In this document: piece by piece, positions 3,092-54,269 of the stretch
Layout of the letters: every line of letters begins with the position of its first letter
How positions within the stretch are numbered: position 1 is the stretch's first letter
Assembly: GCA_022843705.1 (NCBI GenBank)
Contig: JALHND010000004.1
Location: 1-57,329, forward strand
Length of the DNA: 57,329 bases
Direction: 5' to 3'
Source: Burkholderiales bacterium
GTDB lineage: Bacteria > Pseudomonadota > Gammaproteobacteria > Burkholderiales > SG8-41
Notes under the pieces: generated by a model
Told to the model about the DNA's origin: nothing
The model's input: the letters and a program-made list of their open reading frames with translations, nothing else
Databases searched by the model: none
Translations under genes and position numbers: made by a program

Positions 3092-3135
3092 AGTATTATT
3101 ATAAGTGTTTGTTTTTATTGATATTTTTATTATGC
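3092..3135 (-). repeat. AT-rich module copy (between the hemL stop and the pseudouridine synthase start)
   Basis: The reverse complement reads GCATAATAAAAATATCAATAAAAACAAACACTTATAATAATACT. TATAAT lies 35 nt upstream of the ATG at 3062. Confidence 0.65.
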
Positions 3136-19981: not shown

Positions 19982-21258
19982 TGAAAATCCTCGTCATCGG
20001 CGGCGGCGGCCGCGAACATGCGCTGGCCTGGAAGCTGGCGCAGTCGCCGCGGGTGCAGACGGTTTACGTCGCCCCGGGCAATGCCGGCACTGCGGGTGAA
20101 GACGGGCTGCATAATGTTGTGCTGGGCGATAATCAGCAAGTTATTGATTTCATTGATAAAAATGATATCGCGCTGACGGTGGTCGGCCCCGAGGCGCCGC
20201 TGGCGGCGGGTGTCGTCGATGCCGTGCGCGGAGCCGGGCATCGCATCTTCGGGCCGACGCAGAAGGCCGCGCAGCTCGAAAGCTCCAAGGATTTTGCCAA
20301 GCAGTTCATGGTACGCCACCGGATTCCGACGGCGAAACATTCGACGTTCACCGATGCCGCCGCGGCGCATGCCTACATTGACCGCGAAGGCGCGCCGATC
20401 GTGATCAAGGCCGACGGGCTTGCTGCGGGCAAGGGTGTGGTGGTGGCGATGGATGCCGCAGAAGCCCACGCCGCCGTTGACATGATGCTGGTCGGCAACA
20501 AGATGGGCAGCGCCGGCGCACGCGTCGTGATCGAGGAATTCCTCGACGGCGAGGAAGCCAGTTTCATTGTCCTCGCCGACGGCCGCAATGCGCTGGCGCT
20601 GGCCAGCAGCCAGGACCACAAGCGCCTGAAGGACGGCGATCAGGGTCCCAACACCGGCGGCATGGGCGCGTACTCGCCGGCGCCGGTGGTGACGCCGGAA
20701 GTACATGCACGGGTGATGCGCGAAGTGATACAGCCGGTGATCAACGGCATGGCTGCCGACGGCATTCCCTATACCGGTTTCCTCTATGCGGGACTGATGA
20801 TCTCCCCTGCGGGGACGCTGAAGGTTCTCGAGTTCAACTGTCGCATGGGCGACCCCGAAACCCAGCCGATCATGATGCGTCTGAAAAGCGACCTCGTCGG
20901 ACTGCTTGATGCCGCGATCGACGGCAAACTCGACAGCGCCGAGGCGGAATGGGATCCGCGGGTGGCGCTGGGTGTCGTGCTGGCGGCTGCGAATTATCCG
21001 GAGGACCCGCGCAAGGGCGACGTCATCCGCGGCCTGCCGCAGCCCGGCGAGGACTTTCACGTGTTCCATGCCGGCACCGCGCTGTCGGGCAGGGACGTGG
21101 TGACCAGCGGCGGCCGCGTGCTCTGCGTCACCGCGCTCGGCCACAACACGCGCACCGCGCAGAAACGCGCCTACGAGATCGTCGACCTGATCCGCTTTGA
21201 CGGCCTGCAGTGCCGCCGCGACATCGGCTATCGTGCGGTCGCCGCCGGACGCAAGTAG
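19981..21258 (+). CDS. purD: Phosphoribosylamine-glycine ligase
   Basis: [18 protein letters not shown] ... VAPGNAG ... VVGPEAPL ... [13 protein letters not shown] ... EEFLDGEE ... [12 protein letters not shown]. Colinear with E. coli PurD. Confidence 0.95.
20128..20168 (-). repeat. AT-rich module copy inside the purD coding sequence
   Basis: The reverse complement reads ATATCATTTTTATCAATGAAATCAATAACTTGCTGATTATC. It covers purD codons 50-62 ([13 protein letters not shown]), which use A/T-ending codons. Confidence 0.55.
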
Positions 21259-40034: not shown

Positions 40035-40076
40035 CTATAAAAATATTCAATAAAATCAAATACTTAAAACATATCT
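40035..40076 (+). repeat. AT-rich module copy (divergent BacNaV / acyl-CoA dehydrogenase intergenic region)
   Basis: CTATAAAAATATTCAATAAAATCAAATACTTAAAACATATCT contains AATCAAATACTTA, an exact match to the E. coli IHF core WATCAANNNNTTR. Confidence 0.65.
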
Positions 40077-42859: not shown

Positions 42860-44962
42860 GTGGCGGCTGAGGGACGCAGACCCGCGGCACCTCCGCGCCG
42901 TCCGGCCGCCGCCGCGAAGCCGGCGCTGCCCGGCATCGGCGGCGCCACCGCCGACAAGCTGGCGAAACTCGGCATCCGCCGCCGTTTCGACCTGGTGCTG
43001 CACCTGCCGCTGCGTTACGACGACGAAACGCGGCTCTGTCCCCTCGGTGAGGCATTGCCCGGCGCCGAGCTGCTGGTGCAGGGCGAGGTCATCGACTGCG
43101 ACATCAAGTACCGGCCCCGGCGCCAGCTGGTCTGCCGCATCAGCGACGGCAGTGGCGAACTGACGCTGCGTTTCCTCAATTTCTACGGCAGCCAGGTGAA
43201 GACGCTGGCGGTCGGCAACCATGTGCGTGTTTATGGCGTCCTGCGCATCGGCCATTTCGGGCCGGAGATGGTGCATCCGCGTTATCGCGTGATGGACCCC
43301 GGCGCGGCAGTGGCACAGGCGCTGACGCCGGTGTATCCGACCACCGCGGGCCTGGGCCAGGACAGCCTGCGGCGGATGATCGCGCGCGCGCTCGCCGACG
43401 AGCCGCTGGGCGAAACGTTGCCGCAGGCGCTGCTCGACGGACTCGGCCTGCCGGGTTTCGAATCCGCGGTGCGCCTGCTGCACAACCCGCCGCCCGATGT
43501 CGCGCAGGCTGCGCTGCAGGGGCGCGTGCATCCGGCCTGGCGGCGCATGAAATTCGACGAGCTGCTGGCGCAGCAGCTGTCGATGCGGGTGCATTACCGG
43601 CGGCGACGCGCGGCCGGTGCGCCGGTTCTTGCCGTGCGCGGGCAACTGGTCGATGCGCTGTTGAAGCGCCTGCCGTTCCGGCTGACCCGCGCGCAGAACA
43701 CGGTGCTGGCACAGATCCGCGACGACCTCGGCCAGGCGCATCCGATGCAGCGCCTGCTGCAGGGCGATGTCGGCAGCGGCAAGACCGTGGTTGCCGCGCT
43801 CGCGGCGCTGCAATGCGTCGAAAACGGTTATCAGGCGGCGGTGATGGCGCCCACCGAAATCCTTGCCGAGCAGCATTACCGCAAGTTTGCCGACTGGCTG
43901 GAGCCGCTCGGTATCCGTGTCGCCTGGCTGTCCGGTGGAATAAAAAATAGTGTTAAAAAACAAGAACTTATAAATGTATCCGGAGGGGAGGCGCAGGTTG
44001 TCGTCGGCACCCATGCCCTGTTCGAAGACGCCGTGGTGTTCAAGCGGCTGGGGCTGGCGATCATCGACGAGCAGCACCGGTTCGGCGTGCACCAGCGGCT
44101 TGCATTGCGCCAGAAGGGCACGCAGTCGACGAAAGGGCTGCAGCCGCACCAGTTGATGATGAGTGCGACGCCGATCCCGCGCACGCTGGCGATGAGTTAT
44201 TACGCCGATCTCGACGTGTCGGTGATCGACGAGTTGCCGCCCGGACGCACGCCGGTGGCGACGCGGCTGGTGTCCGAGGAGCGCCGCGACGAAGTGATCC
44301 AGCGCGTGCGCGACGCCTGCATCGCCGGGCGCCAGGCCTACTGGGTCTGCCCGCTGATCGAGGAGTCCGAAAAGCTGCAGCTGCAGACCGCGCTCGACAC
44401 CCATGCCCATCTGCAGCAGACCTTTCCCGAATTGCGTGTAGGCCTGGTGCACGGCCGCATGAAGGTCGCAGAAAAACAGGCGGTGATGGCCTCGTTCAAG
44501 GCGGGCGATGTGCAACTGCTGGTGGCGACCACGGTGATCGAGGTCGGCGTCGACGTGCCCAATGCCTCGCTGATGGTGATCGAGCACGCTGAACGCATGG
44601 GATTGTCGCAGTTGCACCAGTTGCGCGGCCGTGTCGGGCGTGGCGCCGCCGAGAGCACCTGCGTGCTGCTCTACCAGGCGCCGCTGTCGCCGCTGGCGAA
44701 GGAGCGGCTGAAGGTGATTTATGAACAGACCGACGGTTTCGAGATCGCGCGCCAGGACCTGAACCTTCGCGGTCCCGGCGAGCTGCTCGGCGCGAGGCAG
44801 AGCGGGGTGCCGATGCTGCGTTTCGCCGATCTTGCGGTCGACCTCGATCTGCTCGACGCGGCGCGTGATGCGGCGGAGCATTTGCTGCGCGAACAGCCGG
44901 ATTCGGCGAAAGCGCATCTCGCGCGCTGGCTCGGCGGGCGCAACGAATACCTGAAGGTGTGA
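42860..44962 (+). CDS. recG: ATP-dependent DNA helicase RecG
   Basis: The wedge domain (LHLPLRYDDET) is followed by helicase motifs (LLQGDVGSGKT, IIDEQHRFGV, MSATPIPRTL, VIEVGVDVPNA, QLHQLRGRVGRG). Colinear with E. coli RecG. The GTG start is uncertain. Confidence 0.92.
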   Translation: MAAEGRRPAAPPRRPAAAAKPALPGIGGATADKLAKLGIRRRFDLVLHLPLRYDDETRLCPLGEALPGAELLVQGEVIDCDIKYRPRRQLVCRISDGSGELTLRFLNFYGSQVKTLAVGNHVRVYGVLRIGHFGPEMVHPRYRVMDPGAAVAQALTPVYPTTAGLGQDSLRRMIARALADEPLGETLPQALLDGLGLPGFESAVRLLHNPPPDVAQAALQGRVHPAWRRMKFDELLAQQLSMRVHYRRRRAAGAPVLAVRGQLVDALLKRLPFRLTRAQNTVLAQIRDDLGQAHPMQRLLQGDVGSGKTVVAALAALQCVENGYQAAVMAPTEILAEQHYRKFADWLEPLGIRVAWLSGGIKNSVKKQELINVSGGEAQVVVGTHALFEDAVVFKRLGLAIIDEQHRFGVHQRLALRQKGTQSTKGLQPHQLMMSATPIPRTLAMSYYADLDVSVIDELPPGRTPVATRLVSEERRDEVIQRVRDACIAGRQAYWVCPLIEESEKLQLQTALDTHAHLQQTFPELRVGLVHGRMKVAEKQAVMASFKAGDVQLLVATTVIEVGVDVPNASLMVIEHAERMGLSQLHQLRGRVGRGAAESTCVLLYQAPLSPLAKERLKVIYEQTDGFEIARQDLNLRGPGELLGARQSGVPMLRFADLAVDLDLLDAARDAAEHLLREQPDSAKAHLARWLGGRNEYLKV
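43938..43980 (+). repeat. AT-rich module copy inside the recG coding sequence
   Basis: GAATAAAAAATAGTGTTAAAAAACAAGAACTTATAAATGTATC covers recG codons 360-374 (GIKNSVKKQELINVS), which use rare A/T-ending codons including two ATA. Confidence 0.6.
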
Positions 44963-53433: not shown

Positions 53434-53615
53434 TTCGGGACGGCCCTATCGAATACTTTGCAGCGTTCAACCTGCGTGCATCCCGGCCGTTATGCAGTCT
53501 GTGGCCGTTGTGCCGAGCCGGTTGTGCCGGCGCCCCGCAGTGGCACCGAATTTGCTCTGAATGTTTTCGGCGGTTGTTGTTGAGTTTAACAGCACACTAC
53601 AGGAGATGTTTGCGC

Positions 53616-54269
53616 ATGCAGATTCTAGAACGCATCGAAAGCCAGATGTCCGCCACCGGCCTGCCCCTGGTCGGCATCACGCTTGCCGCAGTGCCCTGTC
53701 CCGACACGCCGGTGATCCTGACCCTGCACTGGCACGGCTTCATCAAGCAGAAGCTCGTTGATATCGAAGAGGCGGAGGCCGTGGCCTATACGCCGATTCC
53801 GAGCTCGACGCTGCAGCTGAACGAGCGCTGGCATGACCTGGTGGCGGTGGATCGTGCGGCGATGGACGCGGGCTGGGAACTCGGCGCCTGGGATGTGGCG
53901 CGCTCGGAACAGCCCGGTTGCCTGCGTCCGGGTGCGGCGCCCACCGAAGCGCTGGAATGTCTGCAGGCTTTCGGCGCCTACCCCCACAGTGTCAATGGCG
54001 CGCAGGTGGCGGTATCCGATGCGCCGGACACCGACGATCTGGTCGAACTGGCGGCCAACCGCGGCTATCTGCTGTGGTCTTTCCGGCCGGTCTGCGGCGG
54101 CATCTGGAAAGAACTGGCGGACGATGCGACGCTGACCCGCGAAGGCCGCCGGCCTTCGCCCTGTCCTCATCTGCCGGTACCGCCAGCCTGCAGTGGCAAA
54201 CGCAGGACGGTTTACCGTTTCGGCTTCCCGGTCCATCGGGCCTTGCCGGTACCACAGACCAGAATGTGA
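53616..54269 (+). CDS. Hypothetical protein (217 aa)
   Basis: ATG 53616 lies 10 nt after AGGAG. Codons are G/C-ending. No family is recognised, and no signal peptide or TM segment is evident. Confidence 0.6.
   Translation: MQILERIESQMSATGLPLVGITLAAVPCPDTPVILTLHWHGFIKQKLVDIEEAEAVAYTPIPSSTLQLNERWHDLVAVDRAAMDAGWELGAWDVARSEQPGCLRPGAAPTEALECLQAFGAYPHSVNGAQVAVSDAPDTDDLVELAANRGYLLWSFRPVCGGIWKELADDATLTREGRRPSPCPHLPVPPACSGKRRTVYRFGFPVHRALPVPQTRM

Follow-up and report, generated by a model that had tools for sequence, protein, structure and literature searches.

An AT-rich patch conserved at the DNA level inside recG of a Burkholderiales lineage: a candidate site for a DNA-bending protein

The recG locus

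The DNA considered here is a stretch of 57,329 nucleotides, hereafter the window, from contig JALHND010000004.1 of a Burkholderiales bacterium (assembly GCA_022843705.1). Within it, the gene encoding the repair helicase RecG holds a short AT-rich patch written in rare codons, and the comparison of this gene among related genomes suggests that the bases of the patch have been kept as such, most probably as the site of a DNA-bending protein. The analysed assembly, called G000 in what follows, amounts to 3.4 Mb, with a GC content of 64% for the chromosome and 65% for the window. Like all the genomes in this work it is a metagenome-assembled genome (MAG), and the relatives compared are uncultured Burkholderiales MAGs. 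Genes were called with our own codon-likelihood caller, which gives approximate start sites. A Pfam check of the neighbours of recG finds a ridA-like gene upstream and ubiC, ubiA and ubiD downstream. The gene and its patch are placed as follows:

42860–44962, plus strand: recG coding sequence, 700 amino acids (open reading frame, ORF; match to E. coli RecG, 9wm0, with E 2e-218, and also to T. maritima RecG, 1gm5)
43937–43984, plus strand: AT-rich patch, recG codons 360–375, GIKNSVKKQELINVSG (codon reading and GC scan)

The codons of the patch read GGA ATA AAA AAT AGT GTT AAA AAA CAA GAA CTT ATA AAT GTA TCC GGA, and 15 of the 16 end in A or T, as an original prediction made from the window had already pointed out. 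The GC content falls here to a 40-nt minimum of 0.15 (0.65 for the window), and that of third codon positions (GC3) is 0.06 inside the patch and 0.845 in the rest of the gene. Several of the codons used are rare in the genome, where their shares are 0.05 for ATA, 0.06 for AGT, 0.086 for GTT, 0.06 for CTT, 0.047 for GTA, 0.084 for GGA and 0.10 for CAA. Windows of 16 codons with 15 ending in A or T occur only 8 times among the 864,948 in the called genes of G000, spread over 6 genes.

No alignment gaps were found at the patch against E. coli RecG (9wm0), T. maritima RecG (1gm5), 25 relatives and 10 other families of the order; its residues are replaced, not inserted, in agreement with the original prediction. 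On the protein they fall at the surface, between helicase motifs Ia and II, where conservation is poor and lower than anywhere else in this region. The RNA fold of the patch is unremarkable (z -1.7), with no hairpin beyond chance and no inverted repeats, and neither a terminator nor an RNA element was found there, no Rfam family reaching its threshold. The Yersinia small RNA Ysr141 gave a match below threshold (33.7 vs 196 bits, E 3e-7) at 43704–43950 of the minus strand, over recG helicase motif I, which probably arises from that family overlapping recG-like coding sequence.

Conservation at the DNA level

Of 19 genus-level genomes, 17 have the patch at the same codons. Selection was assessed on 16 recG genes of the same genus (82–94% protein identity, 225 aligned codons), whose GC3 is 0.15 inside codons 360–373 and 0.79 outside. 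Lysine is always written AAA within the patch (62/62), against 42 of 116 lysines elsewhere, and glutamine always CAA (20/20 against 45/280). Among the 147 degenerate codons for an invariant amino acid, synonymous variation is seen in 129 (88%); 14 of the 18 that do not vary sit on the preferred codon, and the other four, frozen on a non-preferred one, are K362, K366, K367 and Q368. At codon 370 all of the genes use either CTT or GTT, with genome shares of 6% and 8.6%. Read along the DNA, the bases invariant in 16/16 genes are AAAAA, AAAAAACAA, and TT followed by A or G, which define these elements:

43942–43947, plus strand: 5′ A-tract AAAAAA, which holds the K362 codon; 43943–43947 are invariant in the 16 genus members
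43955–43963, plus strand: AAAAAACAA, that is AAA AAA CAA (Lys-Lys-Gln), invariant in all 16, synonymous sites included
43958–43963, plus strand: AAACAA, the WAWCAA element, within AAAAAACAA
43964–43967, plus strand: N4 spacer, GAAC, free to vary among genus members
43968–43970, plus strand: TTR element, TTA; all 16 genes have TT followed by a purine

The N4 spacer appears in the genus as GAAC, CAAC, ATGG, ATAG, TCAC, TGGC, CGAC or GCAC. As judged from the aligned genes, this pattern shows nucleotide-level purifying selection on the patch, which overrides codon and amino-acid preference. Such selection had been proposed from the window together with its own check, an alignment of recG genes from relatives, and this alignment gives a conserved motif among drifting flanks. 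At a greater distance, the sister lineage G042, with 72% RecG identity, keeps TAAAAAACAATCCCTTG, and order-level ancestral sequences are already Lys-rich at the position of the patch (AAGAAGAAGGAA...CTT).

A family of 36-bp motifs

In reverse complement, the patch can be aligned to a 36-bp motif, whose T-rich form is ATAAGTATTTGWTTTTATTGATATTTTTA. With the recG copy left out of its construction, a matrix finds 276 matches of at least 35 bits in the assembly, against none in the reversed genome used as a control (control maximum 33 bits). Motif copies were also scored with a second, refined matrix, and across matrices the recG copy reaches 38–43 bits on the minus strand. A match of the patch to a family of AT-rich intergenic modules had been noted previously; it holds at the level of the profile and on the minus strand, but not at that of the exact 21-mer AAAAAACAAGAACTTATAAAT, which is unique in the window even with 3 mismatches. 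The copies in the window are:

43943–43978, minus strand: recG copy, T-rich strand TACATTTATAAGTTCTTGTTTTTTAACACTATTTTT, 42.9 bits with the leave-out matrix and 38.5 bits with the refined one
3094–3129, plus strand: copy in the intergenic region between two minus-strand genes, 63.4 bits
31332–31367, plus strand: intergenic copy, 58.6 bits
40039–40074, minus strand: nearest upstream copy, in a divergent intergenic region, 52.7–60.1 bits
47911–47946, plus strand: decayed copy directly past the ubiD stop codon, 21.4 bits
54264–54299, plus strand: copy over a stop codon, 38.5 bits

A weak family-like match inside the gene called purD (20129–20164, plus strand, 24.9 bits) stays below the 35-bit threshold.

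By our own gene calls, 136 of the 276 copies are intergenic, 127 straddle the end of a gene and 13 lie deep in ORFs. They cluster just past stop codons in both orientations, the stop codon itself being often supplied by the motif, through the TAA of its ATAAGT or through its terminal TTTTTA read in reverse complement. Convergent genes surround 46 copies, tandem genes 85+89 and divergent genes 33, with a random orientation relative to the genes. The information content extends over the 36 positions, without dyad symmetry, and ends abruptly in GC-rich flanks, which show neither a promoter consensus nor any conserved sequence. The recG copy, 984 nt away from the nearest gene end and thus one of the 13 deep intragenic copies, is an atypically placed member of the family.

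Most of the extreme patches of A/T-ending codons in G000 genes contain WAWCAA-N4-TTR with a variable N4. In 12 of the 13 deep copies the A-rich strand is the sense one, giving peptides rich in Lys, Asn and Ile: INKNNxL in an oxoprolinase, an ABC-type binding protein, NuoG and an aldo-keto reductase, and SIKTxTY in PolA and two other proteins. The names of these genes come from our reading of their sequences, the Pfam check being restricted to the recG neighbours. The T-rich-sense exception (contig C26, 7831–7866) falls in a NuoM-like membrane protein, where it encodes ILQVFVFIAFFMAF. Other in-codon copies are located at C241 263–298, C17 28489–28524 and C2 56820–56855, in genes read as polA, hrpA and oxoprolinase. 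Nucleic-acid enzymes (recG, polA and hrpA) account for 3 of the 13 deep copies, a sample too small to call a bias.

Counted as a 20-mer core with 2 mismatches allowed, the motif shows 15–178 copies in each of 25 same-genus genomes, 20 in G025, which belongs to another family of the order, and 0–1 in 15 other families. The more than tenfold spread within the genus suggests either a drift of the motif into “dialects” or a rapid turnover. Our literature searches found no description of this motif family or of codon-embedded sites for integration host factor (IHF).

Loss and turnover of the sites

The patch is lost in G041 (MAG ACE_PRO63), whose RecG is 93% identical to that of G000 and whose segment reads GGCTTGAAAAGCAGCGTCAAGAAGCAGGAACTCGCCCAT, nearly the same peptide in GC-rich codons. 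The RecG tree nests this genome with 100/100 support in the crown clade, among patch-bearing genomes and next to G007; 17 of the 18 differences between both in the segment are changes from AT to GC. The segment is the divergence peak of the whole recG gene, with 15–20 differences per 45 nt between G041 and its relatives against a mean of 5.4–6.8. Elsewhere in G041 the 20-mer core remains in 135 copies, and the neighbours of the recG site, at about 40.0 and 47.9 kb, are also kept; no replacement motif site lies within 1 kb of recG. A near-identical recG without the patch had been regarded in the original prediction as an argument against selection. It does exist, but as a secondary loss, which demonstrates the dispensability of the site rather than a lack of selection; because of this loss, the AT state can be considered as actively maintained in the other genomes. 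In G044, the A-runs are kept and the core has decayed to CAG...CAC.

The neighbouring sites have histories of their own. The one at 40039–40074 has an orthologous copy in G041, G007, G003, G010 and G011. The site at the ubiD stop has an orthologue of 39–66 bits in G041, G003, G005, G016 and G004 and is absent in G011, G009, G002 and G018, a case of site turnover within the genus. A compensation between the recG and the ubiD-stop sites was considered, given that G041 and G000 are reciprocal, and rejected: G003, G005, G016 and G004 have both sites and G011, G009, G002 and G018 have the recG site only, and there is no strict reciprocity.

A parallel is found in G025 (53% GC), where a 34.7-bit antisense copy occupies the same RecG loop with an offset of 9 nt (L018 2500–2545) and uses the same reading phase (AAA CAA ATT GTT AAA). 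No motif copy was found in that loop in eight motif-free lineages. The copy of G025 is either convergent or ancient.

Resemblance to IHF sites and the DNABII complement

A canonical IHF site contains WATCAA, TTR, two kink steps and a tract of 4–6 A, all within 34 bp (PMC1874591). The family described here reads AAAAATATCAATAAAAWCAAATACTTAT on its A-rich strand, that is, WAWCAA-N4-TTR plus a 5′ A-tract over 36 bp. The recG core AAACAAGAACTTA matches the 13-bp IHF consensus WATCAANNNNTTR at 12 of 13 positions, with a T to A change at position 3, and the exact WATCAA is found in 44% of the family copies. The layout also fits IHF: the A-tract, CAA and TTR are fixed, the 4-bp spacing is constant in 16/16 genes and N4 is free, and the same fixed and free positions recur at the orthologous intergenic sites at 40.0 and 47.9 kb. 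The site is asymmetric and about 36 bp long, compared with the ~34 bp of the canonical one. Regarding the ApA steps expected 9 bp apart where the prolines of IHF intercalate, the AA of CAA is present, and the step 9 bp upstream is TT in G000 and AT in the genus consensus.

In a blind comparison, the family matrix was re-expressed for the composition of lambda attP and slid over the 1132 positions of NC_001416 27400–28000. Site H1 ranks first, H′ third and H2 17th of 1132, and both H1 and H′ are hit in exact register and orientation, with the T-run of the family on the H′ A-tract; this shows compatibility of the motif with IHF, not binding.

The proteins that could read such sites are few in these genomes. 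G000 encodes ihfA (C24 26956–27264) and ihfB (C41 11995–12279), each of which exceeds the cut-off of its NCBIfam equivalog model; the DNABII proteins found in this assembly are limited to these two. The 25 genus genomes have IHF-type DNABII genes only, exactly two in the near-complete ones, and G025 has ihfA and ihfB only. No HU-type match was obtained in G041–G045, and the motif-bearing lineages (the genus, G025, G042 and G045) are without HU. All of the 15 motif-free families carry three to five DNABII genes, the extra gene being of the HU type in the five out of five tested and in G046. The RecG tree groups the genus in a single clade with G042 and G045, all of them HU-less, with motif counts rising from G045 (4) through G042 (15) to the genus (15–178); G025 stands apart with moderate support.

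A probable DNA-bending site built into codons

Taken together, these data make it probable, in our opinion, that the recG patch is the site of a sequence-specific DNA-bending protein, most likely IhfA/IhfB, built by point substitutions in a Lys-rich and tolerant segment of RecG. A protein-binding or bending site was one of the three candidates of the original prediction, together with an internal promoter and an unwinding-prone site, and it is the one that the evidence favours, as a predicted site. IHF would bind and bend the DNA at recG with an architectural role, either in nucleoid folding or in the insulation of transcription units, and not in the regulation of recG or ubiCAD; the site would be individually dispensable since its neighbours are presumably partly redundant with it.

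Under this explanation, the double-stranded DNA would be the object of selection, with CAA-N4-TTR and two A-tracts as the selected elements. As the A-rich version falls on the sense strand, the codons become those of Lys, Asn, Ile and Gln. The Lys-rich ancestral sequences suggest that the site arose via point substitutions in a pre-adapted, tolerant loop. At one side of the site, IHF would clamp the A-tract through its narrow minor groove; at the other it would read CAA...TTR, and it would kink the DNA twice. Such sites cannot arise by chance in a chromosome of 64% GC, and so would have to be built and maintained. In HU-less lineages they may carry much of the DNA-bending load, parked for the most part just after stop codons, away from promoters, with a few in tolerant coding loops such as that of recG, whose site would be probably architectural and partly redundant with those ~4 kb to either side.

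Several observations weigh against IHF as the reader of the patch, or against an important role for it. In none of the 16 genomes does the recG core read WATCAA; it is AAACAA throughout. The absolute scores of the matrix on the lambda sites are negative, so that only rank and register are informative, and the family matrix contains the IHF consensus by construction. The intergenic copies are far more uniform than the known requirement of IHF, with ~25 informative positions and an N4 that is mostly GTAT, and their reader may be another protein or something beyond IHF. The association of the motif with the absence of HU rests on perhaps one or two evolutionary events, as the RecG tree indicates. 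Any benefit of the recG site must be small, because it was lost in G041 and its core decayed in G044, and no specific consequence for recG or its neighbours was identified.

The uniformity of the intergenic copies, which conserve ~25 of 36 positions, above the need of IHF, makes a different or additional reader plausible. The motif could be recognised by a lineage-specific DNA-binding protein, or have a physical effect, as an AT island that melts easily or is bent by itself, a sort of supercoil sink; the island is extreme for this genome, and the family is lineage-restricted though IHF is universal. Pure melting or bending, however, including the unwinding-prone site originally proposed, leaves unexplained the position-specific conservation of C and G, with an invariant C, the fixed CAA-N4-TT spacing and an N4 that is free at orthologous sites, and the lambda H1/H′ register and the correlation with the lack of HU point to the DNABII system, for which reasons we see this possibility as unlikely, though worth keeping in mind. 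A DNA uptake signal, similar to the uptake signal sequences (USS) and DNA uptake sequences (DUS), would accumulate by biased uptake and recombination, also in coding regions where tolerated. The motif is indeed lineage-specific, equally frequent on both strands and near gene ends, with a few copies in tolerant protein segments and preferred reading frames (INKNNxL, SIKTxTY), 3 of the 13 deep intragenic ones in recG, polA and hrpA, and USS within codons are known (PMC2817400). We find this explanation improbable nonetheless: the density is ~1 per 12 kb, where USS/DUS reach roughly 1 per kb, the copies deep in ORFs are just 13 of 276 (5%) against 34.5–65% according to the table headings of that paper (PMC2817400), USS placement correlates with preferred codons whereas non-preferred ones are forced here, and the free N4 at orthologous sites fits the bipartite site of a bending protein better than a receptor word.

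The remaining explanations deal with the gene itself. The rare codons clustered in the patch (ATA, AGT, GTT, CTT, GTA, GGA), at a position conserved across the genus, could act as a ribosome pause between RecG subdomains, or the patch as an A-rich slippery or unstructured stretch of the mRNA. Conservation concerns specific bases and not rarity: AAA, with a share of 36%, is not rare, and the codon at N4 can vary. The profile that the patch matches, on the opposite strand, derives from extragenic copies only; G041 lost the patch entirely, the length of the A-run is not conserved, and the RNA data given above lend no help, so that a translational signal seems very improbable. We would expect equally little of an internal promoter, either sense toward ubiC-ubiA-ubiD, as the original prediction had it, or antisense into recG. 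G000 has a TATAAAT in sense (43970–43976) and a TATAAGT in antisense, but no -35/-10 pair, with 0 sigma-70 sites in 43700–44200 at a spacing of 16–18 bp. Neither hexamer is conserved, relatives reading TACAGAT, TGCAAAT or GTAACCA, and the family as a whole, with flanks devoid of a promoter consensus, 46 copies between convergent genes and a random orientation, argues in the same direction. No sigma-54 site was found near the patch either, and a looping to a sigma-54 promoter was rejected, the nearest good -24/-12 site being at 53541. Foreign or mobile DNA, as a low-GC recombination tract or an in-frame miniature element resembling Rickettsia palindromic elements (RPE) or miniature inverted-repeat transposable elements (MITE), would explain the abrupt change of composition at the patch and the direct repeats TCCGG(T/A)GG (TCCGGNGG) that flank it in G000. 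The repeat, rejected as a target-site duplication, encodes a conserved Ser-Gly-Gly and is not kept at the DNA level in G011, G009 and others, inverted repeats are absent, and the core persists in the 72%-identical sister lineage; a low-GC transfer or insertion, strain-specific tracts included, is excluded because length is unchanged with respect to any homologue and conservation is genus-wide, and the explanation as a whole is barely credible.

The nearest sigma-54 site just mentioned is, in its own right, a perfect -24/-12 consensus (TGGCACCGAATTTGCT, 53541–53556), 60 nt upstream of an ORF that starts at 53616.

If the patch is indeed an IHF site, a broader picture may tentatively be drawn, which we put forward with considerable doubt. 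A GC-rich clade of uncultured Burkholderiales would have lost HU and would rely on ~280 hard-wired, high-affinity IHF sites per chromosome in its place, whose selection would dictate codons, and even amino acids, in conserved housekeeping genes. The same RecG loop would have been recruited in two lineages (the genus and, with the 9-nt offset, G025), and an abandoned site, that of G041, would have been erased by GC pressure within ~12% nucleotide divergence.

Loose sequence, intergenic location and weak selection are what one usually assumes for the sites of nucleoid-associated proteins; in the present case, a 36-bp site is kept nearly base for base throughout a genus, within a repair helicase and against GC and codon pressure. 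G041 offers a natural knock-out of what follows when the constraint lapses, and the absence of HU provides a testable system for studying the encoding of chromosome architecture without a non-specific bender. The case could also show how far DNA-level signals reach in shaping protein sequence, and it reminds annotators that such patches are neither horizontal transfers nor assembly errors.

Comparison with known systems

Uptake signals of Haemophilus (USS) and Neisseria (DUS) embedded in coding regions were analysed by Findlay and Redfield in 2009 (PMC2817400), with 1,471–1,892 copies, 34.5–65% of them in ORFs. The likeness to the motif lies in a genome-wide DNA word placed within codons, at poorly conserved protein positions and in favoured frames, which shifts the local peptide. 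The motif differs in a density ten times lower, a proportion of 5% in ORFs, the use of forced non-preferred codons and a free spacer. RPEs are palindromic, in-frame insertions that add residues to proteins. They share with the recG patch the condition of a repeated DNA element translated inside conserved protein-coding genes, whereas the patch involves neither a change in length nor a palindrome.

Among repeated elements of bacterial chromosomes, the RIB/RIP elements (BIME-1) of E. coli and the Correia elements of Neisseria contain an IHF site (PMC3184786). The present family, which hugs stop codons, resembles them as a set of repeated elements with a putative site of this kind. Boccard and Prentki, in 1993, reportedly placed elements of this kind at the 3′ ends of transcription units. 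The motif, unlike them, lacks flanking repetitive extragenic palindromic (REP) sequences or terminal inverted repeats and appears as a bare site, not mobile-looking, and its recG copy is intragenic and adds no residues.

The closest relatives of the recG site would be the IHF sites themselves, such as H′, H1 and H2 of lambda attP (WATCAANNNNTTR plus a 5′ A-tract), with which it shares the CAA-N4-TTR core, the A-tract at the H′ spacing and an asymmetric length of ~36 bp. The recG core differs from them in the A for T at position 3. It also differs in its location inside a conserved coding sequence, as one of ~276 near-identical copies in the genome, the intergenic ones being much more uniform than the known IHF sites.

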